Under the pieces are notes generated by a model, which was not told where the DNA came from, ran no database searches, and saw nothing but the letters and a program-made list of their open reading frames with translations. The position numbers and the translations under genes were made by a program. 64,000 nucleotides of DNA from Candidatus Nomurabacteria bacterium (lineage in GTDB: Bacteria > Patescibacteriota > Minisyncoccia > Phycocordibacterales > UBA9973), in contig CP064958.1 in NCBI GenBank assembly GCA_016699085.1, forward strand, positions 271,630-335,629. Reading direction: 5' to 3'. Shown piece by piece: positions 2,574 through 49,084 of the stretch (its first letter is position 1; each line of letters opens with the position of its first letter).

Positions 2574-3254
2574 CAAATTATTGTCGTTTTCCAATAAGCT
2601 TAGAATGTACAGAAGTGTTCAGACAGTTCTGCCTTATTCCACCCTTAGAGGGGTGTTTATAACTTACCATCCTACCAGACAATTCTTTTTAGACTTGTAC
2701 TTCCGCTCTCTTGGTAGGATGCATTTACTTACTAAATTTCTGAAAATTTAGCTTTGCTGGTTCCGCCGAGAACGAAAGGTGGTACTACTAGTATTGTTAT
2801 AGTTATTTTCATAAATATAAAATAGTTAGTTAATAAACCTCTTCATTCTCGAAGAGCTGGCAATTTTTCTACCTAAACAAATAGATAATTTAAACTGCTT
2901 GTTTAGAACTATATCATTTACACATCGGAAAAGTTAATGTGAAAAGTGGAAAACATGTGATTTACTGTCTCCCGCAAAGTAGAGAATTCAGACAGGAACG
3001 TAAAATGCTTTCTAAAATTAAATCAAGACCAGAAAATTTATCATACCTAGCAAATTTTCCCTGGTAAATAATCGATTCTACGACTACCTCCCTTAGAGAA
3101 CTGCTCATCCAACCTCTTTTTTAAGGGGCAGTTCTCTATTTTTGTAAAGTTTTCTTATGAACCGAGATTTTCTCCAACTCACGAAATACCTTTATATATC
3201 AACGTGAAATCAAGAATTCCAAAATTTTTCTCACGTTTCAAATCTCAAAATTTG

Positions 3255-3327
3255 TGCGCCCGGTAGGAATCGAACCTACGACCATCTCCTTAAAAGGGAG
3301 CTGCTCTACCGACTGAGCTACGGGCGC
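3255..3327 (-). tRNA. tRNA-Lys (anticodon UUU)
   Basis: The minus-strand sequence GCGCCCGTAGCTCAGTCGGTAGAGCAGCTCCCTTTTAAGGAGATGGTCGTAGGTTCGATTCCTACCGGGCGCA folds as a cloverleaf. The anticodon loop is CUUUUAA with UUU at positions 34-36, the T-loop is GGTTCGATTCC, and the acceptor stem is 7 bp. CCA is not encoded. Confidence 0.85.
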
Positions 3328-13043: not shown

Positions 13044-13188
13044 AGTCTATCGTTTAAGGTATTATGAATTTTTTGGTTTATTTACCTATATCCTATCATA
13101 TTTAACTATATATGTCAATAGCCAGAGGTAGTCTGAAAAGAGTTCTATTTCCTTCGTTTTTAGCACATTTCCTTGTATTATAAGGACA

Positions 13189-24449: not shown

Positions 24450-24659
24450 AGTAGTAGTATTTATTTTATATAAAATTAATTATTACTATTAGTCCTGTGG
24501 ATATGTGGATTACTATATATAGTCATATATACAAGCCTATTTACCGAAATAATATTTTTTACTAACTGCGATTGTATGGTTTTATTTTTCATAACTATAC
24601 TTTTTCTTTTAATTTTTTTATTTATACACAGTCTACACATTTCTATCCACACGTTATTA
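24450..24659. promoter_or_regulatory. Putative oriC (dnaA-dnaN spacer) with DnaA boxes and an AT-rich unwinding region
   Basis: Tandem boxes TGTGGATA (24495-24502) and TGTGGATT (24503-24510), plus TATCCACA (24644-24651), lie in a 210-bp spacer that is very AT-rich (ttttatttttcataactatactttttcttttaattttttta). Confidence 0.5.
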
Positions 24660-28296: not shown

Positions 28297-29706
28297 TTAG
28301 TTGAATTGATAGCTCCAAAGTGATCCATCGATTTTGTTGGTGAAATATATAAATTTTTCAGATGGATCAGTAAACAGTTTTGTCATGTCGATCGGGGATT
28401 GATTGATTGTGCTTGGATCGACAAGGTTGGCAAAGATGTTTGTTGTCAGGTTGATTCTCCAAAGTGAATCATCGAAAGCTACTTTGCCTTGGTACCATGC
28501 ATCGGGATATGTTTCGACTGGTAGAGCCTTAGGTATGCCGCAATATAGAACCTGGCTACCTATTCCCCAGGTACATTTTTCAGGTAATGTCGCTAGTCCA
28601 AGATTTGCTGATACGTGGGTTAATACATCATACGAATAGAGGGAGTAACTGCCTGCAATTGTTGCGCCGTAAATAAGTTTTTTTCCGTCAGGGCTCATGA
28701 GAGTGGTTACTCCAGGAACATTGCCAAGTATTTTTGTCATAGTGCCCGTTGTCGCATTGATAGAATACACATAGCCGCCAAGTATACCTGCTGGTTTTGT
28801 TGTTGCGACAATAGTTGAGCTATTTGCATATTGCATGAGCCACTCAGTAAATGCTGAATTCCAAAATTGTGATTTTTTAATACCTGCAAAATCCGTACTT
28901 ATCCCGAGTAGTCCCCCATCTGTTGGAAATGTATAGAATATTTTTGTGCCGTCACTTGATTTTGTCATTTCAGTAATATTTTCTGGCATAAAAGTGCCTT
29001 CAAGTGTATATGGTGTTGTGGCGAGTGGTACTTCCTTTATTTCAAGTAGCTCTTCTTCATTGGAGAGTGTATCGAGTGGAAGTTGGGCTATGAATGTTGC
29101 CATATAGGTCTTGATTTTGCCTGTCGCGTCATCAAGGTAGCGAAGAATAACAGAGGTGCCCGATGCGTCCCATATTGCCTCATGAATTCTCGGAATTGTT
29201 GTATTAGAAATCCTTTTTGTCTGTAAAGAATCGGTATACGTTTCGTAGGCATGTGCCGTCTTGGTTTCAATGTAGCGGATAGCTGTAGCTGGCACAGTGG
29301 TGATAATTGGAGGTGGAACGATCGACAGTGATCCAGGGATACCACCTGAATCGCCTTCAATTGCTGCTGGTGCGACAGGGGTCACAATGGTGCGTGTTGT
29401 TAGAAATGCAATTGCTCCTGCTACAGGTTCGGTTGTGATATGGCGAAGTTTAGGTAGTAGAGGCTCCTCGCCTATTGGTTGAGGTTCTCCAGGGACACTT
29501 CCTGGTGGCATAACGTCATTTGTTGGGGGTAGTGGCGTAGGGTTGTCATTCGTCTTTTGTCCAAATGGGAAAAGGTTTCGTAGTGTTATTTCGATATTGC
29601 TTGGATTTGGATTAGTGTCTGTTTTTTTTATAAAAAATCCAATAGCAATAAATGCAATGAGCAATATTCCCGTGATTAGTATTACTAATTTGAATTTTTT
29701 ATTCAT
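28297..29706 (-). CDS. Membrane-anchored protein with Pro-rich linker and beta-rich (propeller-like) ectodomain. Last gene of the T4SS-like cluster (VirB8-position)
   Basis: N-terminal TM LVILITGILLIAFIAIGFFI, a Pro-rich segment, then a ~350-aa beta-rich domain. The call is by position and topology only. Confidence 0.45.
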   Translation of the reverse strand: MNKKFKLVILITGILLIAFIAIGFFIKKTDTNPNPSNIEITLRNLFPFGQKTNDNPTPLPPTNDVMPPGSVPGEPQPIGEEPLLPKLRHITTEPVAGAIAFLTTRTIVTPVAPAAIEGDSGGIPGSLSIVPPPIITTVPATAIRYIETKTAHAYETYTDSLQTKRISNTTIPRIHEAIWDASGTSVILRYLDDATGKIKTYMATFIAQLPLDTLSNEEELLEIKEVPLATTPYTLEGTFMPENITEMTKSSDGTKIFYTFPTDGGLLGISTDFAGIKKSQFWNSAFTEWLMQYANSSTIVATTKPAGILGGYVYSINATTGTMTKILGNVPGVTTLMSPDGKKLIYGATIAGSYSLYSYDVLTHVSANLGLATLPEKCTWGIGSQVLYCGIPKALPVETYPDAWYQGKVAFDDSLWRINLTTNIFANLVDPSTINQSPIDMTKLFTDPSEKFIYFTNKIDGSLWSYQFN

Positions 29707-29715
29707 AGATATCTA

Positions 29716-31155
29716 TTAGCCGTTGGTGAGGCAAGATTGGTAAATACCATATGCATTTTGGCCATATGCACTCGGTGATGATGCACTGCACATACTGTTA
29801 CCACCATTGTAGGCTGAGAAAGTTTTTGCATAATCGCTTGTACATCCTGGGAGTCCATTGAAATATTTCCAGATTTTAGCACCTTCAGTCAAATTTTTTG
29901 TCATATCCAACATATCAGCTGGGGTAAAACCATCCCGTGTTGGGTAGGTATTCCTACTTTCCCATGATGGTGGATTCGTTGTGTATGTTCCAGAATCATA
30001 CCCAATTGGGAAAAACGTAACTTGTACGAGACCTATGCCATTACTAAATCTCCAATCAAGGCCGAGTCCAGGTGTGTTGGTAATCTCATTTTTGCTTACA
30101 TCATTTTTTTTATTTGGATCACTTGCACCATTAAAGGTTACTCCTTTGTATGTTTTACCTGAGTTTAGGAAAGCTTTGTTGGATTTTGTGCCTTTTACAT
30201 TTGCATCCATGCCTATTTGTCCCGCTTGCCCGCCTTTAGTTTCTACTTGCAAAAGTGTGTGTAATACACAATATGGAATGCCAGTGTTTGTGGCAACGGT
30301 ATGTGCTGCCGCATCAATAGCACCTGGAAGTGGTACAGCATTGCCAGTAATTGATTGGTAGACGGTATCTGGAATGATAATATCTTCGACGGCAATGCTT
30401 TGGGTACTAATCCCAAGGTGTAAGCGAACTAAGTTAGGATTGATGGTGTTAAGTATAAGAAATGCAGCAAGTGCAAGTAGTAGTCCTCCAATGGCATGTC
30501 CAATCATCCCCTTAGCATCTTCTTTTTTAGTAAATGACTCACTTCCCATGTAGGTAATACCGCCTAAGACTATCATAACTACAGCCAGTACTCCCGCAAA
30601 ACCTATAGTAAACTTAACCACAATATTAAGATAATCCCCTAGGCCTGTTGTAGGAGTGACTTTTACTATGTTTGGCAATGGTGCAAGTAGACAATATTCA
30701 CCAGCTCCCTCATTGCACTTTATTATTTCACCGTTTTGCGTTGGTGCTGCAGGCAAGTTAACATCTGCGTCCTGGCCACTCACTGCTCCTTTCGCAGTGT
30801 CTGGCGTTTTAAACTGCTTTAAGTCACTGACGGGTTCCTGGTTGCTAGCATTATATAATTCAAAGTAATAGGTTGTATTTGGTAGTACCCCATCAATTTT
30901 TCCGGTAAACGTATTGTCGCTCAACGGCGTAATAGTTTGCCCAGTTTTATCAAGTGACGAGGTACTGGTGCCGTACTTCACCTGCATAACTAGATTTTGA
31001 TATTCAAATACTTCCCCATTGAAACTAAAAGAAGTTGGAGTTGCTTCTGTAATGCTGTAGATGATTACTTGCTGGTCTGCATGGAGTAACCCATGAGGCA
31101 TGAGTATTGCAACAATGAGTGAAAAGAAGAATATAATTCGTTGTATTTTTTGCAT
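29716..31155 (-). CDS. Secreted FN3-like domain + VirB2/TrbC-like pilin TM hairpin + C-terminal SLT-like lytic transglycosylase (fusion)
   Basis: Signal peptide, then TTYYFELY (FN3-like). A two-helix hydrophobic hairpin FAGVLAVVMIVLGGITYMGSE...GHAIGGLLLALAAFLILNT follows. The C-terminus has LLQVETKGGQ...GIGLVQV...AYNGG, which resembles the SLT E-S/GLMQ/AYNxG motifs with Thr in place of Ser. Confidence 0.45.
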   Translation of the reverse strand: MQKIQRIIFFFSLIVAILMPHGLLHADQQVIIYSITEATPTSFSFNGEVFEYQNLVMQVKYGTSTSSLDKTGQTITPLSDNTFTGKIDGVLPNTTYYFELYNASNQEPVSDLKQFKTPDTAKGAVSGQDADVNLPAAPTQNGEIIKCNEGAGEYCLLAPLPNIVKVTPTTGLGDYLNIVVKFTIGFAGVLAVVMIVLGGITYMGSESFTKKEDAKGMIGHAIGGLLLALAAFLILNTINPNLVRLHLGISTQSIAVEDIIIPDTVYQSITGNAVPLPGAIDAAAHTVATNTGIPYCVLHTLLQVETKGGQAGQIGMDANVKGTKSNKAFLNSGKTYKGVTFNGASDPNKKNDVSKNEITNTPGLGLDWRFSNGIGLVQVTFFPIGYDSGTYTTNPPSWESRNTYPTRDGFTPADMLDMTKNLTEGAKIWKYFNGLPGCTSDYAKTFSAYNGGNSMCSASSPSAYGQNAYGIYQSCLTNG

Positions 31156-31156
31156 A

Positions 31157-32131
31157 TTATTCTAAATTAACGATTACTGACTTTTCTGCTGATTGAAAGA
31201 GTCGTGAAATACTTGCAATCGATACGGCAATCGATGCGCTTCCTGCAATACCTTCTGGTTTCTTGATGACAAGCCAATTCTTTTTGCTTGGTGTTGCTAT
31301 GTTCTGCTCATTTAATTTCCAGCTGTATTTTAGATCACTGCTTACTGGATCAAGTGGTGAAAAAAAGTATGGCTCTGCAACAATGGTCGCCTCGCTACTT
31401 TCTAGACTAAATATGTTGCCAAGCTCATGGCTGTACAATATCCCTTCGAGCGGATTATAAACATAAAAAAGAATCTGTGGTTTACCGGTTGTAAGTGTGA
31501 TACTCTGTGTTCCTGTTGCTCCGGAGCTTACGTCGGTTGCTTTGACACTTATCTGCTCTTTGGCATTTAGGTAGCTCGTTTGAAACAAAAAGCTATTTTT
31601 GCTATAGCCAGAAAAATCTGGGTATGCGTTAAAATTTCTTTGCCACGCAAATGTCATGCTCGTAGGACTTGCAATAGTGCCAGCTTTTACTTGTGGCATA
31701 GCAACAACTTTGATTACTGACTGGGATGATGGCATTGCTTTGCCTTTATAAAATGGTGGTACATGCGAATCAACGGCTTGCCAAAGAAGATCGATCGAGG
31801 ACGGGACTATCAGAACACTTTTTGTTATTGATGAGCCATCAACTGAAATGATTGCTTCAACGGTGACTGATGTTCCGACACTGTCAGTTTTTACTTGATA
31901 GCTTATTGCTCCCGTTTTATTGAGTCCAATTTTGCCATTTACCTTCCAAGTAATGTCTGCGCGGCTTAAATCAATAGCAAAACTAGTTAATTTTATGGTG
32001 ACAATTTGATCAGGCCCTGGAATTTCTGGTACTGTCGATACACTGACATCGCTTTGTACTAGTTCTGCGTGTGCGACCACAGTTAATCCGAAATATATCG
32101 AAATAATGAGGAGGATAAAAGCTTTTTTCAT
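31157..32131 (-). CDS. Secreted beta-rich protein of T4SS-like cluster
   Basis: Signal peptide MKKAFILLIISIYFGLTVVAHA. No motif recognised. Confidence 0.5.
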   Translation of the reverse strand: MKKAFILLIISIYFGLTVVAHAELVQSDVSVSTVPEIPGPDQIVTIKLTSFAIDLSRADITWKVNGKIGLNKTGAISYQVKTDSVGTSVTVEAIISVDGSSITKSVLIVPSSIDLLWQAVDSHVPPFYKGKAMPSSQSVIKVVAMPQVKAGTIASPTSMTFAWQRNFNAYPDFSGYSKNSFLFQTSYLNAKEQISVKATDVSSGATGTQSITLTTGKPQILFYVYNPLEGILYSHELGNIFSLESSEATIVAEPYFFSPLDPVSSDLKYSWKLNEQNIATPSKKNWLVIKKPEGIAGSASIAVSIASISRLFQSAEKSVIVNLE

Positions 32132-32197
32132 TGCTTAAAGTATAGCATAGGAGCATAAAACGTAAATCACATTCCTATTGAAATCAGTGCAACTTTT

Positions 32198-34033
32198 TTA
32201 CGCACTATCCTTTTCACTTGCTTCTAGTTCCTTTTTTGCTTTTTGTATGGCAAGGACTTGCGAAGGATCAGAGGTGATAATTTGATCTTCGGTATAGGAA
32301 GCAATCGTCTTAATCGCTACATGTTTGAGTCCTGCAAAGAATATGCCTTCACCGACACCGGATTCGAGGAGAAGATATTTCTCTTCGTCAGTAAGATTAA
32401 AGGTTTTTTGTAGTAAATCGATTGACGATGGGGACTGTTTCAGAAGAAATTGGATTGAAGAGTTCGTCACAATCGGTATACCATAGGGACTTTTCATGAA
32501 GTCTGCAACGTCTTGGGTAATTGTAGCAAGTCCTAGGTAGTACTTACGGCCACGTTTTGCAATCGAGTAGAGAAACGATGCTGTATCTTCTGATTTCATC
32601 ATCCACCAGGCTTCATCAACGACGAGGAGGCGTTTCCTTAAGTTTTTACGAACGGAGTTCCATATATAGTGGGTCACGATGTACATGGCAACAGGTTTAA
32701 GCTCGTCTTCCATGTCACGGACAGAAAAAACGACGAATTTTTTGTTGATATCTACATTTGATGGTTTGTTGATGAATCCTGCCCATGAACCGCGGGTATA
32801 CTTGGTAAGCTTTTGTATGATTGACTCAGTTCCCTCCATACCAGAGAGCACCATTTCAAAATCAGACATGAGCGGTGGCTCAATATTTGAGAAATCAGAA
32901 TTTGGAGTGATATCTTTGATGCCGTACGTTTCAGTAATCGCTCGATCAATAATAGAATCTTCTTCAGGTGTGAGGCCGCCTAGCATGATGCGGAATAGTC
33001 CGACTAAGTTGATCGTATTTGATCTGAGCACATCTGCTGCTGTCTCATCATCGTGTGGAATCGGTAAATCAAAAGGATTGATGTGGTGATCAGATGATAG
33101 TGAAATATTAAAGTATCGTCCTCCGACTGCTTCAGCCAGATATTCATACTCGCGCTCCGGATCAATAACGATTACTTCTGTATCAAACATGAGTGTACGG
33201 ATGATTTCGAGTTTGGTTGCATATGATTTACCTGAACCTGATTTGGCAAAGGTAATGGAGTTGTAGTTTTCGAGAGAGAAACGGTCAAAGATAACCAAGC
33301 TTGAATTGTGGCGGTTGATACCATAGAGAATACCTTTGTCTGAGGTCAAGTCAAAAGAAACAAAGGGGAAAATTGAAGATAGAGGCTCAGAATTAAGCTT
33401 CTGGTGTACATTGAGGAGGTCAGTGCCAATCGGTATAACACTCTTGAATCCTTCTTCTTGCTGGAAAAGTGCTGGTTTCAAATACACGAGCTTAGCATCG
33501 AGTATTGATTTGATTTCATTTTCAATTTTAAAAAGCTCATTTTCATTGTCGGCATACATAGTGAGGTACAGTCCAACATCAAACATTTTCTCCTGTGCTT
33601 GCTGTAGATTATCCCGGAGCGTTTCAATATCGCGATAGGCAGTATCGAGCATTGGGTCGCGCACCAAACCGCGCGATTCGCGCATATTGATCTGGCTCTG
33701 CACTTCTGCAACTTTCTTTTGAAATTGTCGCAAAATTGTCGCAGTATCAATCGGATGAATAAAGATTGAAACATCAAAAATCTTGTCGAGGTTGATAATC
33801 GGCGCAAACCAGTTGTCAGTCAAATACCTTGGATACGAAATCACGAAGAAAGTTCGGGCAATCTTATCTCCTAGATGTAGTGCTTTTGGCTCAACTTGTA
33901 GTGCTGATGGTGCAATAATATCCTGTAGCTCAAGTGTTGCGGCCTCGTATATTTCTTGTGGCAAAACAGGCAACACTTGCTTGTCGCTCCCGCTTCCCTT
34001 TTTTGATTTTCCTAAAAGTCCAAAAAGTGCCAT
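32198..34033 (-). CDS. virB4: VirB4/TrbE/CagE-family type IV secretion ATPase (C-terminal 611-aa portion)
   Basis: Walker A FAKSGSGKSYATK, then IDPEREY, a Walker B LLVVDEAWWMM (the DEAW signature) and GLATITQDVADF. The N-terminus contains the Gram-positive VirB4 NTD segment ARTFFVISYPRYL. Confidence 0.85.
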   Translation of the reverse strand: MALFGLLGKSKKGSGSDKQVLPVLPQEIYEAATLELQDIIAPSALQVEPKALHLGDKIARTFFVISYPRYLTDNWFAPIINLDKIFDVSIFIHPIDTATILRQFQKKVAEVQSQINMRESRGLVRDPMLDTAYRDIETLRDNLQQAQEKMFDVGLYLTMYADNENELFKIENEIKSILDAKLVYLKPALFQQEEGFKSVIPIGTDLLNVHQKLNSEPLSSIFPFVSFDLTSDKGILYGINRHNSSLVIFDRFSLENYNSITFAKSGSGKSYATKLEIIRTLMFDTEVIVIDPEREYEYLAEAVGGRYFNISLSSDHHINPFDLPIPHDDETAADVLRSNTINLVGLFRIMLGGLTPEEDSIIDRAITETYGIKDITPNSDFSNIEPPLMSDFEMVLSGMEGTESIIQKLTKYTRGSWAGFINKPSNVDINKKFVVFSVRDMEDELKPVAMYIVTHYIWNSVRKNLRKRLLVVDEAWWMMKSEDTASFLYSIAKRGRKYYLGLATITQDVADFMKSPYGIPIVTNSSIQFLLKQSPSSIDLLQKTFNLTDEEKYLLLESGVGEGIFFAGLKHVAIKTIASYTEDQIITSDPSQVLAIQKAKKELEASEKDSA

Positions 34034-34036
34034 ATA

Positions 34037-34705
34037 TTATTCTAGTTTAATATTTTGCTCTGTCTCGCCTGGATTAAATATCTTATAAAAAAGTTCAATA
34101 ATCTCTTCGGTTCCAAGTTGGGTGCTTCGAATACCACATCGGTTAAGCCCTTGTTGGATGACAGCAATGCGCTCTTCGAGTTGTGAACGTTTCTCTTCAA
34201 AAGCTGCCAATGCATCTTCTTTTGCTTCTTTTGATGATTTATTAAAGCCGGTGAACATTTGGGTAATGCCGCCAGTATTACCTATCGTAGTTGCTGAATA
34301 CGGGATAACGATAAAGAAGTTCTTTGTCATGATGTTTACCTGCTCAGTAAAGCTTTTGATGAATTCGATGTATTCTTTTGTCTGTACCTTAAGGAGTGGC
34401 TCTAACTGCTCCTTCATTCTGTTTTCAAGAGTTACAAGGTATGGCTGAATATTTAATCGTCGTGATTGGATAATAATCTGAGTTGAAAATTCAATCGAAT
34501 TCAAGAAATTTTGAAATTGCAGAAGAATCGCGTGCTGTTCATCAGCTGACTTGAGTGACAGATTGATTGATGAAGCTATAACAACAGCTCGTAAGCCGCC
34601 ATCTTTAAGTACGATGATGCCGTCGCGAACTTCTTTGATTGGCACAAACCCTTGGGTGGCCTTCGCATTGATTGCCATATGGGACAGTATACCATCCCCG
34701 CGCAT
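34037..34705 (-). CDS. VirB4 N-terminal domain encoded as a separate 222-aa ORF
   Basis: VPIKEVRDGIIVLKDGGLRAVVIASSINLSLKSADEQHAILLQFQNFL matches the N-terminal segment of Gram-positive VirB4/PrgJ-type proteins. The ORF stops 3 nt before the ATG of the 611-aa ORF, which lies in a different frame. Confidence 0.55.
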   Translation of the reverse strand: MRGDGILSHMAINAKATQGFVPIKEVRDGIIVLKDGGLRAVVIASSINLSLKSADEQHAILLQFQNFLNSIEFSTQIIIQSRRLNIQPYLVTLENRMKEQLEPLLKVQTKEYIEFIKSFTEQVNIMTKNFFIVIPYSATTIGNTGGITQMFTGFNKSSKEAKEDALAAFEEKRSQLEERIAVIQQGLNRCGIRSTQLGTEEIIELFYKIFNPGETEQNIKLE

Positions 34706-34713
34706 GGATATTG

Positions 34714-35163
34714 TTATTTTTTGTTGATATCAAGCACATCCAAGCTCCAAGAAATCTCTTTGAGCTTGCTGCCGGAGAGTCTTGGGATAACTGAGGTTGG
34801 CAATTCAGTGTCTTTTTTCTCGACAATTTTCTTTTTCGGTTCACGTTTCCAAATGTAGAGTTTTGACTGGAAAAAATATCGTAAACTATTTTCAAGTACG
34901 AATATAAATGGCTTATTATTCACCTTATAGAACGCAAGGGCGAGTGCTAGTCCGCCTATCGGTGCAATAAAAAGTACAGCAAAGAAAAATGGCAATAGCC
35001 TATACGCAATAAAGCAAAGTCCTGCCCCACCTGCGAGGTAGACGAATTGTCTGAAGGTAAATGGCCCGAATATCTTGTCTTCTATATCAATAAATTGTGG
35101 AACTTGGAATCGCATATAGGTATTATATAGCTTCTCGGTATAAATCTTTTTGTTTATCTGCAC
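34714..35163 (-). CDS. Small 2-TM membrane protein, VirB3/PrgI-like by position and topology
   Basis: IFGPFTFRQFVYLAGGAGLCFIAYRLLPFFFAVLFIAPIGGLALALAF. It lies immediately upstream of VirB4, as prgI/virB3 does. The start may be the internal Met (35115), which would avoid overlap. Confidence 0.4.
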   Translation of the reverse strand: MQINKKIYTEKLYNTYMRFQVPQFIDIEDKIFGPFTFRQFVYLAGGAGLCFIAYRLLPFFFAVLFIAPIGGLALALAFYKVNNKPFIFVLENSLRYFFQSKLYIWKREPKKKIVEKKDTELPTSVIPRLSGSKLKEISWSLDVLDINKK

Positions 35164-36013
35164 TACCTGTTACTTGAGGTAATGTGTAATTGCTTTCTTG
35201 CTTTGGAATCTTAAATGTCGTCTGTAATTTTTGAGCGACAACATTACCTTGAGGTGCTGGGACTGGTGTCGGGGTAGCTGTTGATGGTGCAGTAGATTCT
35301 GGTTGGTTTTTAGGCATGCCCACAAATTGCTGTGGCACTGGCATATCTTGGAGTTTTACTGTAGGCGGAATGATTTTTGGTGTTTGGATAGCACTAGCTA
35401 TACCTACATTAGCAGGCTTTTGTAGTGGATGAGGCATCGATGTGTCGTTTCTGATTGGATTCTCGAGTGACTTTATAAGTGCATCTCGAGTCAATGCTTG
35501 AGCGTCGGTAGTATCTAATGCGTCACTAATAGCGGTCTCTCTCGGTTTGATGAGTTCAATCTTTGCGTCTTTTAGAATATTTGTGGTGTTTTTCTCTTGA
35601 GTTGGGCTATCAAGATCAACAGAAATTATTTCTTTAGGAATTACATCTTGTTGTATAGTTTCAACTACTTCTTCATCCTCAATTGGTCTATTTAATTCTT
35701 CGATCTCCTGCATCTTTTGACGAACTGGAGCAAATATTTTTTCATTGAGATCACTAATCAAAAGCGGTGTTTGGATAACAGAAAGTCCCATTTCTTGCGT
35801 GATCTCTTGTGAGAATTCTTGAGGATTAAGAAGACCTATAAATACAAGTGGAATCAAGCCATCAAGTATTCCAATTTTATCTATATGAAGATTATATTTC
35901 TTCCCTAATTCTTGAGTAATTTGATCAATTTTTATGCGAGAAGTAGCTTGCATAAGTTCAGTTGGTGCATTCTCGAAAGCTTTTTTGATTTCTTCTGGTG
36001 AAATATTTTTCAT
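35123..36013 (-). CDS. Bitopic membrane protein with Pro-rich C-terminal region (T4SS-like cluster)
   Basis: Cytoplasmic N-domain, one TM (IGILDGLIPLVFIGLL) and a P/Q/T-rich extracytoplasmic tail. Confidence 0.45.
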   Translation of the reverse strand: MKNISPEEIKKAFENAPTELMQATSRIKIDQITQELGKKYNLHIDKIGILDGLIPLVFIGLLNPQEFSQEITQEMGLSVIQTPLLISDLNEKIFAPVRQKMQEIEELNRPIEDEEVVETIQQDVIPKEIISVDLDSPTQEKNTTNILKDAKIELIKPRETAISDALDTTDAQALTRDALIKSLENPIRNDTSMPHPLQKPANVGIASAIQTPKIIPPTVKLQDMPVPQQFVGMPKNQPESTAPSTATPTPVPAPQGNVVAQKLQTTFKIPKQESNYTLPQVTGSADKQKDLYREAI

Positions 36014-36020
36014 TGTTCTA

Positions 36021-39000
36021 TTAGCTATTTAGTTTATCATTAGCGTCCCTTGTTTTTTGCTCAACAGTATCTTTTTTAGCAAATACTTCTTTATACATTT
36101 TAATATCTTCCTTTGCCTTCTCTATATTCATGTGGGCCTTAGCAATCTCAATTGGATTTTTTGAAGCTTCAGCTATGGTTAGATTTGCCTGTGCGGTTGC
36201 AAGGTCTTTTTGCCTGTACTCAACTACTTGTTTAATATGACTTTCATCTACTACTGGAGGACGAACACCTGTTTCAAATTCAATATTATCAGCAATGTCT
36301 TTCAAATGATCATTAACTTCTGCCATTTCTCGAGCGGCCTTATCAAGTGTTTGTTGTGCACGTCGTCTCTCTGTAATACTAATTGGTTTCTGTGCGTCCT
36401 TTGTTTCTTCGCCAGCTTGTTTACGCAATGAGGATATCGTTGCTTTCTCAGTTGCATTTAAGTTACGTTTTGAAATTGTTTCAGCTTCTCTCCACTTTTC
36501 TTCACTAAATGCTGCTGTTCGACTTCCAGCTGCTACACCAGCTGCTATTTCTTCGGCAACTTGCTGTTCGTTTGCAGTTCTAGCAGCATTTTTAGCACTG
36601 ACATAGCCTGGTCCATATTCGATAGTATCTGCAGAATCACGCATGCGCTGAGCATTAACTTCTGCGGCTGATTGTACTTTTGCGCCACCACCATTTCCGT
36701 TGTGGGTAATATTGCCATCTTTGTCATAAATAGTTGCCATCTGTTTTTCATATAATTTTTTGAAATCTGCTTCCTTAAATTTATCACCCAGTGCAGCTCG
36801 AGCATTTTCTTTGTCTGTCTCATATCTTTCTTGCCAATCTTTTGCTTTTTTATTTTGCTGGTCAGCTTCATACCCTGACATCTTGTAAGTTTCTGCTTCT
36901 TTCATGCGAGCGTCCTTCTTGCGTTCAGTAGCACCTTTTGCTCCACCTTCAGTAGATAGATCAATTCTGCCAGTGCCAAGTGTTAAATTAGCTGCGCCCT
37001 GAGCAAATCCGCCAAGGCCAGATGAAGCTTTGGTATCCCAGCCAGTTTGTTTCGCAAAACCTTCGCCAGCTTTTGTCTTTCTGAAATCAAAACTACTTGC
37101 TGCCATTGAATTTGAAATTGTAAGTTGTCGTTGTGCCCACTTATCCCCTTCAGCCGCACGTCGTTGTAGATCAGGATCTTTTGCCCTTGCGGCTGCGACT
37201 GCTCCGAGTGTTGATCGTAGTCCAAGTGCTGCTCCACCTGTTGCAACGCCAACCGCGGCGCCGCCAACTTTGTTCATAACTGCAAGCGATGCTGCCCCAA
37301 TGTCACCAGAAAGTTTGACTGCCATATCAACCGCTGTTTTTATCAAGAAATATATAATCGCAAACGGTATGATGAGGCCGATAAGTCCTTGGATATTACT
37401 TTCGAGACTGCCGCCAGTTGGACTGTTACTTGCTGCGATTGGTAGTAGCTTAAGATCAGTCGCCATAATGATGATATAAAGGAAAAAGAGGAATATTGGT
37501 GCCATAAATGCCTGAGATACTAGTTCGTGCCACCAGTTTGTCCAACCAATTTTCATCCAACCTTTCATCGACGGCACGATCCATGATACGAACGCAAACG
37601 GAGATAGTATCATTGAAACCATCAGCCCTATGACACGGCCGAGAAACAGTACAGCAACCTTGAGAAACATGAGGAACATAAATATATTGATTGCAATAGC
37701 AATGAGTAGCACAAAGAAGAACCAGCCAGTGTTTGCGTTTGCGTCGATATCGCTTGTTTTGAATATTTTCTGTGGATTAAATTTAGAAACAAGTCCAAGG
37801 GTTATACTCTTCTCGCCACCCACTGAAGAGCTTTGTCCGGTCACATTTACTGAGTCGTACATGATCCGAGCGAGGATATTTGACGTGTCGATAATAATTT
37901 TGGTAAAAAATAAGCTGAAGTTGATAAGGAGCGCCACAACGACGAGCGAGGCGATCATTTTCTTGGCATCGACACCACTGATTCGTAGAATAGTGCCGAT
38001 AGCAATATAGAGCAGTACGAATATGAAAAGAATATTTGAAATATCACGAACAATGCGCCAGCCTTGAGGTACGAATTCTGTAGCGGTGTAACTTGAGCTT
38101 TGTAGGGAGAAATGTAAGAACCAATCAAGGAATCCAGCAGCAAGTCTCGCAAGTGCAGCTGTTGGAATGTATAAGACGTAATACACCAGCTGAGTAAAAC
38201 ACCCGAGCATGTTGATTGCTGCCCTGCCTGATGTCAGACTGAAATCTAGACAGTATGGCAAATTACCAGGATTGCCTGTGTCCGTTGAGCCTTCGACTAT
38301 GTTTTGGCCCCCTGTTGGACTTGTTGTTACCTCAGGAGAGCCAGCTGGCAGAGTTTTGAAGGGCGCAATTTTTTCCTCATCATCACTAAGGGCGCTCAAG
38401 GTGTCATTACTAAGCTCACCAATACAATTACGAATTAGCGGGATAACTGAACAAGTCTCCTCAAGTCTCCCTTGACTTACATATTGGGTATCTGGCTTTA
38501 AACCCGTAACAGTAATGTTGATTGTTTGAGTGCCAAGAAAAATGTCTGGAATAACGACAATGCTCTGTCCAATATTTTGATCGAAAGTAATTCCTGGAAT
38601 GGGCTTTCCTGCACGGTCTAGAATTTTACCATTGATAACTTCTTCGTCGGAGAGGGTCGCTGCTTCCTTTTTGGCCATAGTACCCAGATTGTCCTCATTT
38701 GTAGCAATATCTAAATAGACACCGCAGCCATACCCATTACATTCGAGTGGATCATAGGATCCTAGTGCCCCACCATTGCCTGGGATTTCTTCATTGCCTT
38801 GAGACGAATTGGATTGTCCAGAAAGTACTTCGTAAATAGGATTACCGTCTTGCCCTTCGATGTATGTCCATCCAGTAATTCCATTGGTGCTTCCATTAGG
38901 AGGAATTCTTCCTTTATAAATATCATGACCAATATTGCCGTCATTACCGCCATTAACTTGTAACTGGAATTGAAGTACAGCTGTTGTTGCTCCGACGCTT

Positions 39001-39128
39001 ATCACCTTAACTTCAGGTATATTAAAATTATCATCCAAATAAGCTTCGGCTTTTTGCGGAGTAAATATTGGCAAAAAGCTTCCTGATAGGATAGTGATGA
39101 AGAGCACATAGAGCAGGAATTTTTTCAT
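36021..39128 (-). CDS. Giant polytopic membrane protein, VirB6/TrbL-like core, with ~350-aa ectodomain and ~450-aa charged coiled-coil cytoplasmic tail
   Basis: Signal peptide, large N-terminal ectodomain, at least 7 hydrophobic helices (residues ~330-620), then a K/E/A/Q-rich low-complexity C-terminus. Confidence 0.5.
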   Translation of the reverse strand: MKKFLLYVLFITILSGSFLPIFTPQKAEAYLDDNFNIPEVKVISVGATTAVLQFQLQVNGGNDGNIGHDIYKGRIPPNGSTNGITGWTYIEGQDGNPIYEVLSGQSNSSQGNEEIPGNGGALGSYDPLECNGYGCGVYLDIATNEDNLGTMAKKEAATLSDEEVINGKILDRAGKPIPGITFDQNIGQSIVVIPDIFLGTQTINITVTGLKPDTQYVSQGRLEETCSVIPLIRNCIGELSNDTLSALSDDEEKIAPFKTLPAGSPEVTTSPTGGQNIVEGSTDTGNPGNLPYCLDFSLTSGRAAINMLGCFTQLVYYVLYIPTAALARLAAGFLDWFLHFSLQSSSYTATEFVPQGWRIVRDISNILFIFVLLYIAIGTILRISGVDAKKMIASLVVVALLINFSLFFTKIIIDTSNILARIMYDSVNVTGQSSSVGGEKSITLGLVSKFNPQKIFKTSDIDANANTGWFFFVLLIAIAINIFMFLMFLKVAVLFLGRVIGLMVSMILSPFAFVSWIVPSMKGWMKIGWTNWWHELVSQAFMAPIFLFFLYIIIMATDLKLLPIAASNSPTGGSLESNIQGLIGLIIPFAIIYFLIKTAVDMAVKLSGDIGAASLAVMNKVGGAAVGVATGGAALGLRSTLGAVAAARAKDPDLQRRAAEGDKWAQRQLTISNSMAASSFDFRKTKAGEGFAKQTGWDTKASSGLGGFAQGAANLTLGTGRIDLSTEGGAKGATERKKDARMKEAETYKMSGYEADQQNKKAKDWQERYETDKENARAALGDKFKEADFKKLYEKQMATIYDKDGNITHNGNGGGAKVQSAAEVNAQRMRDSADTIEYGPGYVSAKNAARTANEQQVAEEIAAGVAAGSRTAAFSEEKWREAETISKRNLNATEKATISSLRKQAGEETKDAQKPISITERRRAQQTLDKAAREMAEVNDHLKDIADNIEFETGVRPPVVDESHIKQVVEYRQKDLATAQANLTIAEASKNPIEIAKAHMNIEKAKEDIKMYKEVFAKKDTVEQKTRDANDKLNS

Positions 39129-39262
39129 TACGTAGGATGAATAAGAAAGCTATAATCTGCCTTCTCATTTTATCACTAGAGCCTTTGTTTAGATAGCAAA
39201 AAACTGTTAATTAAAACAAAATACACTTCCTACATTAGGAAGTGTATGAGTAAGGAGATTGT

Positions 39263-41515
39263 TTAGTAATTCTGTGGGAGATAATCACTGATTGAGCTCC
39301 TGTAGAATTTACTACACTCCATTTTAAACGGCTCATTATTGTAGCCTTTCGTATAGGTATATCCTCCTCCCTCACCTGCGTGATAGACAAATGGTATCTC
39401 TGAGAAAATCCATTGCCAGCCTGGTTCAACGAGTGGATCGGCGTCATGATTTGCATCAGTTCCGCAGAAAAGTAGTTGCACGGCATCTTTGCCGACCGCT
39501 TCTCTTGCAATTGGGTCTGTGCTATTTTTTTCGTTTAGGCAAGCCTGCTGGAGAGATGGTTCACTAATGGTAGTTCCGGGCGTATAGTTTGCAGGATCAG
39601 ATGAGCATTTTTTATATAATGCATTAATATCTTCGCCACTTACTTTAAACGCGTAGGATAGATCAGCAACATAGCCGTTACATTCATTTTGGGCATCACT
39701 AATCGTATCACTGCGGCTAATTTTATCTTTTAAAACTACATATTGTCCTGCAAGTTGGTTTTTATACTGAGCAACACTTGCAGAATCAGGGCTACCATCA
39801 GAAGGTTTTGGGTGTGCGGCTATGCCTGCAACGATGCTCTTTAATAATGCAAGGGATCGTACTTTATCAGAAATTCTATTCTGTAGATTACTTTGGTCTT
39901 GGTTGTACTCCTCGACTTTTTTGACTTGATCAACAATTGCTGCTGCAGAAGTAATATTCTTGATAAGGATATTAGTCTGGAAATTAGCGAGAATATATGA
40001 CATTGCATTATTCAAATATTTTATCTGGTCCTGAGCTTGCTCTCCATTATTTGTATTATTATCTGATTTTGATTCCAGTTTTCTTGATTCAGTGGTAAAT
40101 TCTGACTGCATTCTGGATGCGTATTTGTAGTCTGGTCCAGGTAAACATTGGTCAAGCTGCATTGTTCTTAATGGAAATGTTTTTAATAGATCGCGACTTG
40201 CAGTTAGAATCGTAAGCTCTGTTTGGGTTTTATTTATTGCATCAAGTAATTCTGGGGATGGTGTTCCAGGAGCTGTCCCTTCGAGAGGTACTGCATCAGC
40301 GACATTCCAGCTAAATGTTCCATTTGTGTCTGACACAAATGCACTGTTATCTCCCGGGCCTTCGACGGTTTCATCACCGCTTCCGGTTGCAATGCTGCCA
40401 ATCAGTTGACTCAAGCCTTTACTAATAAGCCCTGCAGCTAAATTTGAAACAGCATCGACGACTGGACTGCCACTTGCAGAGTCAAGGAGGGCTTTTTCAA
40501 GTGGTGCAGTGACAGATTGGTTGAGCTGATCAGCAACAAGTTTGCCTGGAGTTACAGTTTCATACCTTGCGCAGTCATCGCTAGCATCAAATTGGATACT
40601 GCTTCCGAGGCTGAGGCTTAAGCTGTTCAAATAATCATCTGCATTCGTGCCGCTGCTCGTACATTCACTGGTTGCGTTTGTATTGTTTGCAGAATCAGAC
40701 TGGCATTCGGTCTTGGTAGTAAACGGGCCGACAGTGTATGTTTGTAGATTGTCATTCACTGCTGTGTATGTCCAATCTGTTGCTGTAATTGCATTTTGAC
40801 CACTTGAGCCATCTTTGTATTCAACACATTTTTTTGCTGACAGGAATCCTCCACTTTGATTGAGTTCATTTTGGATTGTGCCCTGTGCCTCTTTTGCCCG
40901 ATTCTCTAATTCCTCAGCAGTTCGTAAATATGAACCAACGGGATTATTTGCGTCATTTTGAGTAAATGCCATCCAACCATCCCATCCTCCTACAGCAAAA
41001 TCGCCGTCAGTAAAGTCTTGCCAGTTGGGGCCGATTACTTTATCTAAGGTAAATTTTGATTTATCTGCAAACACACTCGAATTTGTTGTCAAATACGAGG
41101 TAATGAGGTTTTTAGCAACCCCTTGGGAATACGGGAACTTTGTTATATCCCCTGTAATTTCATTAACAAAGGATTCAACTTTCTGGTCTGCTATGCTTTT
41201 AAAAAAACTTGATTGATCACGGACAAAAAAAGGATTGCCATTAAATCCAGTTGATCCCCAGTTGATGATTTGCTGGGTCATGTTGAGTGCAACCTGAGAA
41301 CTTATACGCTTGAGAGATTTTTGGAGCAAGGTACCAGCTAAAGTTTTGCCGGCACTCGCAGCTGATTGGGAGCCAAAAATAGTCTGTATAATTTGTTGGG
41401 GCAAATTCGGCAAATCTACAACTGGCAATCCTGCGTGAGCTGGCTTAATTTGTACCGCCAATAATAAGAAAAGACTAAGAAAAGAAATAATACTATACTG
41501 ATAGCGCTTTTTCAT
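39263..41515 (-). CDS. Large secreted protein (750 aa) of T4SS-like cluster, Cys-containing
   Basis: Signal peptide MKKRYQYSIISFLSLFLLLAVQIKPAHA, with multiple Cys pairs. No motif recognised. It could be an adhesin or VirB5-like tip protein. Confidence 0.5.
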   Translation of the reverse strand: MKKRYQYSIISFLSLFLLLAVQIKPAHAGLPVVDLPNLPQQIIQTIFGSQSAASAGKTLAGTLLQKSLKRISSQVALNMTQQIINWGSTGFNGNPFFVRDQSSFFKSIADQKVESFVNEITGDITKFPYSQGVAKNLITSYLTTNSSVFADKSKFTLDKVIGPNWQDFTDGDFAVGGWDGWMAFTQNDANNPVGSYLRTAEELENRAKEAQGTIQNELNQSGGFLSAKKCVEYKDGSSGQNAITATDWTYTAVNDNLQTYTVGPFTTKTECQSDSANNTNATSECTSSGTNADDYLNSLSLSLGSSIQFDASDDCARYETVTPGKLVADQLNQSVTAPLEKALLDSASGSPVVDAVSNLAAGLISKGLSQLIGSIATGSGDETVEGPGDNSAFVSDTNGTFSWNVADAVPLEGTAPGTPSPELLDAINKTQTELTILTASRDLLKTFPLRTMQLDQCLPGPDYKYASRMQSEFTTESRKLESKSDNNTNNGEQAQDQIKYLNNAMSYILANFQTNILIKNITSAAAIVDQVKKVEEYNQDQSNLQNRISDKVRSLALLKSIVAGIAAHPKPSDGSPDSASVAQYKNQLAGQYVVLKDKISRSDTISDAQNECNGYVADLSYAFKVSGEDINALYKKCSSDPANYTPGTTISEPSLQQACLNEKNSTDPIAREAVGKDAVQLLFCGTDANHDADPLVEPGWQWIFSEIPFVYHAGEGGGYTYTKGYNNEPFKMECSKFYRSSISDYLPQNY

Positions 41516-41538
41516 GTTGTTTTAGTATAACACCCGCT

Positions 41539-42483
41539 TTATTGTGAACCAAAGCCTCCTGCAATATAAATATCATTTTGAAGTATATTTAAATTTGTCT
41601 CGAGTGAAGTCAAAATATCATTTGACTGGTAAATACTTGCAAGTGCTGGAATTGGATCAATAGGATATTTGGCAATATCGGCAAACATATCAGCTGTTCT
41701 GTTGATACTATTAATAAGGGCAAGATGTGTCACTGCCTCGCTCTCAGGTACTGGCAAAGCGATAAGCGTAGTAACTAATGCGTGATACTTGTCAGCGATT
41801 TTTTGTATATTTGCATCAGGTGTCGTTAAGTTTGGAGTAACAACAATACTACCAAGGGTAATAAAATCTTCTTGTTTAATTGGGTATTTGAGTAATGCAT
41901 TACCAAAACCAGTAATATATGCCAAAGAGTTAGTGCTCGTATTAGCGTTACTTTTAATATCAGTAATTGTGTATGTTTTCCCTGGTGGTTTAGTTTTTAT
42001 AAACGTGATTATTTCAGCTGTAATGCTTGCTGATGATTCATCAGTTAGTTCTCCATTTTCTTGCAATGCTGCAATCGTTGAGAAAAGCTCTCTGGTAAAT
42101 GTATCTGTTTGACTTAAAATTTCACTGGCAGATTCCTCTGATGTTGCTGTTGATGTATTAATAGACGTGCGTAGATTGGCAACTTCTTCACCATCGCTTA
42201 TGCCATTACCATTTGTGTCTGAATTTTTTGGGTCCATATCCCACAGTGGCTCTTCCCAATCAGCTAATCCATCGTTATCTGTGTCTGTTTCAACAAGCGT
42301 ACCTAATGCGACGGTAGGTCCTGCAGGAATACGAGTATCTTTGATCTCATTTGTTTTATTAAACTCGATCCGAGTACGTATGTATGAAATGCCAACACCG
42401 ACAATGATGACAATGCCGATAATCAAAAGCACGCGAAGCATCTTTTTGCTAGGTAAATATGAAGTGATTCTAGATGGTTCCAC
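41539..42483 (-). CDS. N-terminally anchored protein with Asp-rich Ca-binding-like repeat. First gene of the cluster after ksgA
   Basis: TM VLLIIGIVIIVGVGISYI, then DTDNDGLADWEEPLWDMDPKNSDTNGNGISDGEE (thrombospondin type 3 / dockerin-like). Confidence 0.5.
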   Translation of the reverse strand: MEPSRITSYLPSKKMLRVLLIIGIVIIVGVGISYIRTRIEFNKTNEIKDTRIPAGPTVALGTLVETDTDNDGLADWEEPLWDMDPKNSDTNGNGISDGEEVANLRTSINTSTATSEESASEILSQTDTFTRELFSTIAALQENGELTDESSASITAEIITFIKTKPPGKTYTITDIKSNANTSTNSLAYITGFGNALLKYPIKQEDFITLGSIVVTPNLTTPDANIQKIADKYHALVTTLIALPVPESEAVTHLALINSINRTADMFADIAKYPIDPIPALASIYQSNDILTSLETNLNILQNDIYIAGGFGSQ

Positions 42484-42502
42484 AGAGTACAGTATACACG
42501 TT

Positions 42503-43324
42503 TTAGATTTCTTTTTCTAAAGAGTTTTGCAGTAGCTTTTTTGCAATAATAAACCAGGTTTCTAAATCTATGTCCTCTGCCCGTATTTGTTCTGGTAAAT
42601 CTCCGGCTTGCCAAATATTGGTCAGTGCATCATATGGCATAGGCAATGATGTAAGATTTCTGATGAGTACTTTGCGTTTATGGGCAAATCCTGTGCGAAC
42701 AACATTGAAAAAATGTTTTTCCGATACAGCATACTTTGTAAAAAGATTTTTTGAGATTTTCTCAATTGAAAGTATGGCTGAGTCGACGCGAGGCGGTGGT
42801 GTAAAACTACCGCGTCCTACCTTGGCTATGATCTTTGGGTTACCGTAGGCTTTGACTGCGATTGAGAGAATGCTTTCCTTGTTGTCTTTAGCGATAATCC
42901 TTTCGGCGACTTCTTTTTGCACCAAAAGAACCATCTGTTCTGGTATACAAGGAGCGCTCAAGATATGCTTCAATATTGCGCCAGTGATATTGTATGGGAT
43001 ATTGGCAATGACTTTGTAGGTAAGATCATGATAAAAAGCAAATACACCTGGGTCAAAATCAAGAATGTCTTTTTCAATAAGCTCAAGTTTACCGTCTGCT
43101 ATTTCTTTTGCAAATGTAGCCGAAAGTTCTTCGACTAGTGTACGATCTTTTTCAATCGCAACCACTTTGCCAGCAAAAAAAAGTAATTTTTTGGTAAGCA
43201 CACCGTGCCCTGGTCCAATTTCAAGAATAATATCAGTCGGCTGTATATCCCCACTCTCTATAATAGTGTCGAGTGCGTGTTGGTTATGGAGAAAGTGTTG
43301 TCCTAAAGATTTTTTAGCAAGCAT
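42503..43324 (-). CDS. rsmA: 16S rRNA (adenine1518/1519-N6)-dimethyltransferase RsmA/KsgA
   Basis: KKSLGQHFLHNQ, SAM-binding ILEIGPGHGVLT, ANIPYNITGAIL. The true start is the internal ATG at 43322-43324. The longer ORF to 43630 overlaps the helicase. Confidence 0.85.
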   Translation of the reverse strand: MLAKKSLGQHFLHNQHALDTIIESGDIQPTDIILEIGPGHGVLTKKLLFFAGKVVAIEKDRTLVEELSATFAKEIADGKLELIEKDILDFDPGVFAFYHDLTYKVIANIPYNITGAILKHILSAPCIPEQMVLLVQKEVAERIIAKDNKESILSIAVKAYGNPKIIAKVGRGSFTPPPRVDSAILSIEKISKNLFTKYAVSEKHFFNVVRTGFAHKRKVLIRNLTSLPMPYDALTNIWQAGDLPEQIRAEDIDLETWFIIAKKLLQNSLEKEI

Positions 43325-43325
43325 G

Positions 43326-45383: not shown

Positions 45384-45445
45384 TTGGTTTGTTCATAAAC
45401 AACAAAAGTGCCATGGTATACCATGGCACTTTTGTTGTTTATTTA

Positions 45446-49063: not shown

Positions 49064-49084
49064 AATGGTTTAAATTTAAAATTA

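Follow-up and report, generated by a model that had tools for sequence, protein, structure and literature searches.

Does the run of conjugation-like genes between ksgA and the dnaA and dnaN replication genes of a Candidatus Nomurabacteria (Paceibacteria) genome encode a mobile element, or a secretion apparatus that belongs to the chromosome, and what might such an apparatus do? We analysed a 64-kb stretch of this genome (the window), in which positions 28297-42483 hold ten co-directional open reading frames (ORFs), all on the minus strand and here named g1 to g10 by transcription order. They encode proteins of 314, 750, 1035, 296, 149, 222, 611, 324, 479 and 469 amino acids (aa). The cluster is almost certainly the Patescibacteria type IV secretion system (T4SS), and it is very probably best explained as a machine derived from monoderm (MPF_FATA) conjugation machinery whose DNA-processing parts have been lost. 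It is an ordinary, well-preserved member of a published, already known system. One feature is apparently so far unreported, namely a pilin fused to a hydrolase cassette that varies between species.

The Patescibacteria T4SS is among the few machines common to a very large, mostly uncultured group of ultra-small, host-dependent bacteria, which carry it on the chromosome beside the origin of replication, and it is essential in the one species tested. The window brings no new system; it offers a clean and complete Paceibacteria example with a component-level description. A first-pass annotation of this DNA had described a co-directional minus-strand cluster with small spacers, and the spacers from pcrA through ksgA and g1 to g10 indeed measure 1, 19, 23, 134 and 7 nucleotides (nt), a short overlap, and then 8, 3, 66, 1 and 9 nt. 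It had also counted twelve genes, a number reached only with ksgA and pcrA, both of which lie outside 28297-42483.

The VirB4 module

The ATPase body of the system is encoded by g7 (32198..34033, 611 aa), a VirB4 of the CD1110 / MPF_FATA type that scores 380 bits against NF045971 (curated cut-off 325). It also matches Pfam P-loop_TraG (86 bits), and it is 26% identical to residues 242-772 of PrgJ from pCF10 (E 6e-43, about 540 residues). The Walker A lysine K269 and the Walker B residues D473 and E474 are invariant in 80/80 sequences. An identical protein (100%) is known from Candidatus Nomurabacteria, and g7 has at least 8000 homologues. Among the best 120 of these, identity is 83-100% and length about 610 aa (589-682; one 541-aa fragment), and every match with an organism name belongs to a Patescibacteria lineage.

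Immediately upstream, g6 (34037..34705, 222 aa) is TrsD-like and corresponds to the N-terminal domain of VirB4 as a separate gene. It matches the NCBIfam model VirB4_plasma at residues 102-285 (E 4e-13) and TrsD/TraD (E 4e-7), below curated cut-offs, and also CD1110 residues 9-123. The boundary between g6 and g7 reads as an in-frame TAA followed by TAT ATG. Both genes are separate ORFs in 79/79 related loci where both were found, with varying spacers and frames, and the split, which the first reading had listed as VirB4 in two ORFs, is therefore a genuine two-gene arrangement. Readthrough of the TAA and a pseudogene were considered and are ruled out by the separate ORFs of these relatives.

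The third member is g5 (34714..35163, 149 aa), a PrgI/VirB3-like small membrane protein that scores 41.5 bits against PF12666 (gathering cut-off, GA, 27). Its true start is probably an internal ATG near 35115. The gene lies two genes upstream of the ATPase and is present in 76/80 related loci, with a median identity of 53%. With both VirB4 and PrgI above their thresholds, the earlier description of a Gram-positive-type (MPF_FATA-like) T4SS in a reduced-genome, probably episymbiotic bacterium is upheld.

Conservation in related genomes

Relatives were collected by a scan with one genome per GTDB species, which gave 80 loci (L001-L080), mostly labelled Nomurabacteria, Paceibacteria, Kaiserbacteria or Wolfebacteria. 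Gene order was read by tblastn of every window protein against these loci, wherever the contig was long enough. Throughout these species-level genomes the order pcrA-ksgA-g1-g2-g3-(g4)-PrgI-TrsD-VirB4-g8-g9-g10 is kept, followed by jag-yidC-(rnpA) and then by dnaA-dnaN. Cluster and housekeeping flanks thus show synteny in 80 species-level Paceibacteria genomes. Within it, PrgI-TrsD-VirB4-g8-g9-g10 forms an invariant module.

The conservation of the single proteins is graded. Median identity over the 80 species is 82% for VirB4, 68.5% for DnaA, 62% for TrsD, 55.5% for DnaN, 53% for PrgI, 44% for g9, 34.5% for g8, 33% for g3 and g10, and 27-28% for g1, g2 and g4. The ATPase is thus under more constraint than the replication initiator, a sign that it has probably been inherited vertically for a long time and under strong selection. 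When the 80 loci are compared with the window, all extracellular parts of the cluster proteins prove hypervariable in length and sequence (the N-terminal ectodomain of g3, the C-terminus of g2 and both ends of g9), whereas their membrane and cytoplasmic parts are conserved.

Relation to described systems

The closest description is that of Quinonero-Coronel et al. (2025, Microb Genom, PMC12102498), who surveyed 3035 Patescibacteria genomes. They found a monophyletic Patescibacteria VirB4 clade nested in MPF_FATA, with TrsD as the commonest VirB4 partner, together with PrgI/VirB3, some VirB6 and VirB2-like pilins. A link between VirB1 homologues and virB4 was specific to Paceibacteria, relaxases were almost absent, and the system lay near dnaA, dnaN, rnpA and ksgA. 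The window shares with this Paceibacteria form the MPF_FATA VirB4, the adjacent TrsD, PrgI/VirB3, the VirB2-like pilin, the virB4-linked VirB1-type hydrolase, the lack of a relaxase and the dnaA/dnaN/rnpA/ksgA site; nothing essential differs. Since that paper already describes the system, including its site near dnaA and ksgA, the system is not novel. The earlier remark that such systems are barely characterised is outdated, given this publication and a Saccharibacteria counterpart shown to be essential in 2023 (PMC10633639). The survey makes no mention of pilin and hydrolase as one polypeptide or of a cassette swap, nor are names given in it to the Ig-like, propeller, 750-aa and TSP3 proteins described below (PMC12102498).

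Wang et al. (2023, Cell, PMC10633639) showed that Southlakia epibionticum ML1 needs this counterpart (SEML1_0006-0019) in order to grow as an epibiont. As in the window cluster, the subunits of the Southlakia T4SS are Gram-positive-like and include predicted pilins, and neither a coupling protein nor a relaxase is recognisable (PMC10633639; review PMC12857230); its low locus-tag numbers suggest that it too is origin-proximal. It differs in an array of six small divergent pilins and in separate peptidase and lysozyme genes downstream of virB4 (PMC12102498, PMC12857230), whereas the window encodes one pilin, fused to the hydrolase.

Among conjugative systems, Prg/Pcf of pCF10 (Enterococcus faecalis) is similar in its VirB4 (26% identical over 540 residues), its PrgI family protein, the monoderm envelope, and the succession of a polytopic protein, PrgI, VirB4, a hydrolase and a bitopic protein. 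The first-pass annotation had seen in this order a mirror of prgH-prgI-prgJ-prgK-prgL. The order does resemble that of pCF10, but homology to PrgH and PrgL is undetectable with hhalign. pCF10 alone has an unsplit VirB4, the type IV coupling protein (T4CP) PcfC, the relaxase PcfG, the VirB8-like PrgL and PrgD, and the adhesin PrgB, and it has no pilin; the window cluster has none of PcfC, PcfG, PrgL, PrgD and PrgB, and has a pilin. The Trs/Tra systems of pGO1, pSK41 and pIP501 (TrsD and TrsE) are the only MPF_FATA subclass with a separate TrsD, like the VirB4 N-terminus, beside VirB4 (PMC12102498). They differ in being plasmid-borne and conjugative, with T4CP and relaxase, a separate hydrolase (TrsG/TraG) and no pilin.

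A pilin fused to an exchangeable hydrolase cassette

The centre of g9 (30421..30708, residues ~150-245) is a VirB2/TrbC-like hairpin of two transmembrane (TM) segments. This core is a strongly conserved block and matches PF18895 (T4SS_pilin) in 63/68 orthologues and TrbC/VirB2 (PF04956) in 18/68. The window copy reaches 17.4 bits alone and 120 bits against a hidden Markov model (HMM) of the clade, and g9 is the sole pilin-like ORF of the window (a single HMM match in a six-frame search). The core is preceded by a signal peptide and a variable ectodomain resembling immunoglobulin (Ig) or fibronectin type III (FN3) folds (30709..31155), with a weak match to the FN3-like Pur_ac_phosph_N; this N-terminal part is 19-474 aa long among orthologues.

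The core is followed by a C-terminal cassette (29719..30420) that a family profile identifies as an SLT / goose-lysozyme-like lytic transglycosylase domain. Its motifs are a putative catalytic E305 in VETKGG, GLVQV at 375 and AYNGG at 448, with E305-T in place of E-S in the window copy. Taken alone, the C-terminal domain of the window protein gave no Pfam match; a profile of three sequences gave no match in PDB, and hhalign against the SLT_2 cassette returned 7% probability. The call is supported because its family members and a family profile do match SLT enzymes. The family comprises 181 representative clusters, the pilin core being present also in 140 of the best 150. Pfam SLT (PF01464) was found in 25/29 members (best E 1.4e-12), and the family profile recovers from PDB MltC (4c5f, E 3e-4), goose-type lysozymes and Slt70, with the catalytic glutamate aligned. 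The fusion of a pilin hairpin with an SLT hydrolase, as originally annotated, is therefore borne out for both parts, and the C-terminal domain of g9 is the predicted VirB1-type peptidoglycan hydrolase of the cluster.

The cassette is not the same in other species. The C-terminal domains of 71 orthologues, from 71 species, fall into 26 mutually unrelated BLAST clusters, among them NlpC/P60 (13), VanY (8), YkuD (5), M15_4 (3), SLT_2 (3) and several unnamed types; CHAP is also present. Cassette type is independent of VirB4 similarity, since pairs of the same type have a mean VirB4 identity of 81.5% and pairs of different types 81.0%, and nearest VirB4 neighbours have the type in common in only 13/56 cases. 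In the nearest relative (L001, VirB4 92-93% identical) g9 matches at 45% up to residue 258, and a VanY cassette follows.

A single pilin ORF was found in 71/74 loci, and two paralogues in the other three. They lie at 12862-14616 and 15982-17868 in L003, at 12774-14237 and 14236-15684 in L057, and at 12558-14297 and 15659-17359 in L073, adjacent to each other in L057 and flanking g10 in the other two. The pairs of L003, L057 and L073 are 80%, 98.6% and 56% identical, respectively, through the N-terminus and pilin core, after which the cassettes differ; in L003 one is SLT-like and the other of the NlpC/P60 type.

This architecture recalls the polymorphic toxins (CdiA-CT, Rhs, LXG), which likewise combine a conserved N-terminal carrier with a sharply bounded, horizontally exchanged C-terminal enzymatic cassette, and the tandem paralogues of g9 differ only past the junction. 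In contrast to those toxins, a T4SS pilin serves as carrier, wall hydrolases stand in place of nucleases or pore-formers as cassettes, and there is no variable immunity-type gene 3' of g9, where nearly all loci have the conserved g10 (median spacer 5 nt). Another system that invites comparison is the X-T4SS of Xanthomonas and Stenotrophomonas, which attacks neighbouring bacteria with effectors that include peptidoglycan hydrolases. It is a diderm VirB/D4 machine with separate effectors, recruited by VirD4 via XVIPCD domains and accompanied by immunity proteins. The window cluster shows none of these diderm VirB/D4, XVIPCD-effector or immunity features.

We found no mention of the pilin-hydrolase fusion or of its cassette polymorphism in the searchable literature. 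As a tentative proposal, which we hold to be possible rather than probable, g9, as the single T4SS pilin of Paceibacteria, may be a modular "armed" pilin: a conserved VirB2-like core that carries an interchangeable hydrolase cassette and a variable Ig-like domain on the outer face of the filament, and that evolves by cassette swapping as polymorphic toxins do, here without an immunity gene. The cassette would be matched to the wall chemistry of the host bacterium; it would therefore be the means by which the host's wall is breached, and would help to determine the host range. The swapped-cassette fusion is in any case a handle on host-wall action and host specificity.

Envelope components without a T4SS family name

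No T4SS family name applies to five of the conserved partners; two of these, g8 and g10, are given folds here, neither of which is that of VirB8. The topologies first assigned to the cluster are confirmed, with a signal peptide or single TM segment in g1, g2, g4, g8 and g10, multiple TM segments in g3 and the two-TM hairpin in g9.

The largest protein, g3 (36021..39128, 1035 aa), is a polytopic membrane protein in the VirB6/PrgH position. Its signal peptide is followed by an ectodomain that varies (30-290), by a conserved core with multiple TM segments (~300-660) and by a charged tail in the cytoplasm that is again variable. None of 57 orthologues has a TrbL/VirB6 Pfam match, and hhalign against PrgH of pCF10 gives 4.7% probability. 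The term "VirB6-like" used in the first-pass annotation is therefore apt for its topology and position, and homology is not demonstrable.

Conserved envelope proteins without a family name are g1, g2, g8 and g10. Gene g1 (41539..42483, 314 aa) encodes an N-terminally anchored protein (TM residues 15-33) with a thrombospondin-type-3 (TSP3, Ca-binding) repeat and a conserved C-terminal domain without known fold. TSP3_bac scores 18.3 bits in the window copy, below GA, and is matched by 8/33 orthologues (best E 5.7e-9); D67, W76 and E78 are invariant. The 750-aa product of g2 (39263..41515) is secreted with a Sec signal and belongs to no recognised family, Pfam and PDB sequence searches being without match. 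Its ~480 N-terminal residues are conserved and its C-terminus is variable, and a few orthologues carry additional Ig-like or discoidin modules. The bitopic g4 (35123..36013, 296 aa; single TM 44-62) has a Pro-rich C-terminal half and is weakly conserved, being detectable in 24/80 loci; hhalign shows no relation to PrgF or PrgG, for which it had been considered.

Downstream of the ATPase, g8 (31157..32131, 324 aa) is a conserved cluster member. Its predicted model shows a secreted protein of three tandem Ig/FN3-like beta-sandwich domains, which rules out a TcpC/VirB8-like double-NTF2 protein. The last gene, g10 (28297..29706, 469 aa), is modelled as a membrane-anchored beta-propeller, with a TM helix (3-27), a disordered Pro-rich linker (28-85) and a 7-bladed ectodomain. 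Because of this architecture the parallel with prgL is one of position only. The "VirB8-position" protein of the first reading has no VirB8 fold in the model, and a VirB8-like identity is ruled out by the propeller together with the hhalign result against PrgL (0.3% probability).

Proposed function and alternatives

A non-conjugative role at the interface with a host is, in our assessment, somewhat favoured. The VirB4 hexamer, together with TrsD, would dock on PrgI and the polytopic g3, and would supply the power to pull the pilin out of the membrane and build it into a short filament or conduit at the surface. Given its signal peptide and two-TM hairpin, g9 would expose the Ig-like N-domain as well as the hydrolase C-domain on the exterior of the cell, and the hydrolase could open peptidoglycan locally there. 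The g10 propeller and the Ig-like g8, perhaps with g1 and g2, may take the wall-spanning scaffold role of the VirB8-like proteins of Firmicutes. If the essential T4SS of Southlakia epibionticum is taken as a guide, the apparatus would serve a cell-to-cell host interface and not conjugation. Hypervariable ectodomains as opposed to a near-invariant ATPase, together with cassette swapping, point to direct contact with a partner whose surface varies. As far as sequence tells, the apparatus may export proteins, import DNA or nutrients, or mainly breach the host wall.

Several points weigh against this interpretation. Essentiality is known solely for a Saccharibacterium with a different cluster, built of pilin arrays and separate hydrolases, and we infer the host-dependent lifestyle of the present organism from its phylum. 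The pilin may have to polymerise with end domains of ~150 aa and ~230 aa, or else be processed first. The VirB6/PrgH assignment of g3, based on topology and position only, is unproven as homology, and there is no VirB8 (NTF2) fold in g8 and g10, the two conserved modelled candidates downstream of VirB4. Finally, T4CP homologues occur in most Patescibacteria genomes, usually far from virB4 (PMC12102498), and this genome may have one outside the window.

The cluster could instead be an integrated conjugative element (ICE), or the remnant of one, that transfers DNA to other cells; its VirB4, PrgI and TrsD have their nearest characterised relatives among the proteins with which Gram-positive plasmids and ICEs conjugate, and the polytopic protein, PrgI, VirB4 and hydrolase follow each other as in prgH-I-J-K of pCF10. 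No T4CP, relaxase or integrase was found among the Pfam-scanned ORFs of the window (the long ORFs outside the cluster and the ten cluster ORFs), the others being PolA, TsaE, RuvB, RuvC, YebC, TyrRS, PBP1, PilB-like, PNPase and similar proteins. PcfC and PcfG of pCF10 and the Tn916 integrase had no tblastn match in the window or in the 80 related loci, while PrgJ matched in 81/81. There is no flanking tRNA, the sole tRNA of the window lying ~25 kb off at 3254-3327, and there are no boundary repeats. It was in part on the absence of VirD4, relaxase, integrase and flanking tRNA, which holds for the window as scanned, that the first-pass annotation had based a chromosomally fixed apparatus, and we agree that, with no coupling protein, relaxase, integrase or flanking tRNA, the cluster is not an ICE. 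In 80 species the cluster sits at an identical place, with ksgA on one side and the oriC genes on the other; GC content is even between cluster and flanks, the conservation of VirB4 above DnaA speaks for long vertical inheritance, and relaxases occur in only 103/3035 genomes (PMC12102498). The conjugative-element reading is largely refuted, and we regard it as very improbable indeed. Of the three outcomes that the first-pass annotation had named as refuting its own reading, none was encountered in the window and the 80 related loci.

A machine for uptake of DNA or nucleotides, comparable to ComB of Helicobacter or the archaeal Ced system and feeding host DNA to a nucleotide-auxotrophic cell, would fit the gene content, as uptake systems require neither relaxase nor T4CP. 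The idea has been raised in the literature (PMC11665869), a wall-cutting pilin could open a lysed or permeabilised host, and g7 has a weak match to the DNA-import ATPase CedB (30 bits, E 1.6e-7). That match is far under the cut-off of 700 bits, however, and reflects general VirB4/HerA similarity. The cluster is without a recognisable DNA-binding or nuclease component, the window shows no ComEC-like channel in linkage with it, and experimental support has come from no Patescibacterium, so we consider uptake improbable. Somewhat less doubtful, though still unlikely, is that the g9 hydrolase is a housekeeping VirB1-type enzyme that opens the cell's own wall so that the machine can be assembled, its diversity being neutral and the apparatus being a protein exporter or adhesive filament without host-wall attack. 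Gram-positive T4SSs always have a wall hydrolase of varying domain type (PrgK, TraG, CD419; PMC12102498), and Patescibacteria have peptidoglycan of their own, as the PBP1-type synthase (20590-23094) and the M23/LysM enzyme (51306-52403) of the window indicate. Neutral replacement, however, poorly explains 26 unrelated cassettes in 71 species, a type that is independent of VirB4 (13/56 neighbours), or tandem paralogues 98.6% identical to the junction and unrelated beyond it; moreover, the g3 N-terminus, g2 C-terminus and g9 N-terminus are likewise hypervariable, while membrane and cytoplasmic parts are conserved.

Genomic context and other features of the window

As the first-pass annotation stated, ksgA and pcrA are the direct neighbours of the cluster. 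The pcrA/uvrD-family helicase gene (43326..45236, minus strand; Pfam UvrD-helicase 284 bits, UvrD_C 229 bits) is syntenic in related loci wherever the flank extends that far. It is followed after 1 nt by ksgA/rsmA, the 16S rRNA dimethyltransferase gene (42503..43324, minus strand; RrnaAD 184 bits for the 273-aa version), which ends 19 nt before g1. The longest ksgA ORF (42503-43630, 375 aa) overlaps the 3' end of pcrA by ~300 nt; because the RrnaAD domain begins at an internal Met (start 43324), this 5' extension is probably an artefact of ORF calling that is not translated. On the other side, jag is convergent with g10, 144 nt downstream, and is preceded on the plus strand by yidC, yidD and rnpA. 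Beyond rnpA lie dnaA (24660-26009) and dnaN (23352-24449), both on the minus strand and Pfam-confirmed.

Four DnaA-box-like 9-mers (≤1 mismatch) are clustered in the dnaN-dnaA spacer (24496..24651) and likely mark oriC. The g1-g10 cluster would therefore end ~3.7 kb from the probable origin and be transcribed toward it. If oriC lies at 24496-24651, the 17-kb pcrA-g10 block (28297-45236) is transcribed head-on to replication, and its origin-ward orientation is kept in related loci. Helicases of the pcrA type help replication forks to pass head-on transcription.

In the interval that separates pcrA from a 102-aa ORF, positions 45395-45442 hold AAACAACAAAAGTGCCATGG TATA CCATGGCACTTTTGTTGTTT, a perfect 20-bp palindrome flanked by T-runs on either side. 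This element probably terminates transcription in both directions, in which case pcrA would open a new transcription unit. Directly 3' of g2, the 134-nt g2-g3 spacer contains a terminator-like hairpin with a 12-bp stem and a U-tract (39221..39247, minus strand), and GC-rich hairpins occur at the same site in the close relatives L001, L005 and L058. The spacer measures 0.8-2.2 kb in 13/31 related loci listed, as opposed to ~50-130 nt, and must therefore hold one or two extra genes where the window has the hairpin. Long spacers were seen in L003, L004, L010, L013, L015, L022, L038, L053, L054 and others. Given the hairpin and the variable spacer, pcrA-ksgA-g1-g2 and g3-g10 may be two separate transcription units, and the statement that the cluster is co-operonic with core genes is unproven. 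A promoter scan of the window gave no excess over shuffled expectation, and an Rfam scan returned the tRNA alone. An alternative genetic code is not indicated, as ORFs are long under table 11 with normal stop usage.

Further upstream, two minus-strand ORFs of 1087 aa (45800-49063) and 618 aa (49085-50941) have no Pfam match and no counterpart in the 80 related loci, whose flanks rarely extend there. Within the 1087-aa protein, a unit of ~100 aa (GEALP..KRK..L.I.E...F.FSDK.N.VSA) is repeated and the tail is Pro-rich; AT skew in the region 45800-50941 is strongly negative. The enzyme at 51306-52403 (plus strand), about 9 kb upstream of the cluster, is a secreted wall hydrolase with two LysM domains and Peptidase_M23; M23 and LysM domains are also found on some VirB1-like proteins (PMC12102498). 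At the other end of the window, a PilB-type T2SSE ATPase (13189-14886, plus strand; 378 bits) lies beside genes for a secreted 725-aa DUF11-containing protein (9649-11826, minus strand) and a secreted 322-aa protein (12075-13043, minus strand). The ATPase and these two neighbours are probably part of a type IV pilus or adhesin locus. Such a locus is the other machine known to be essential in Saccharibacteria.

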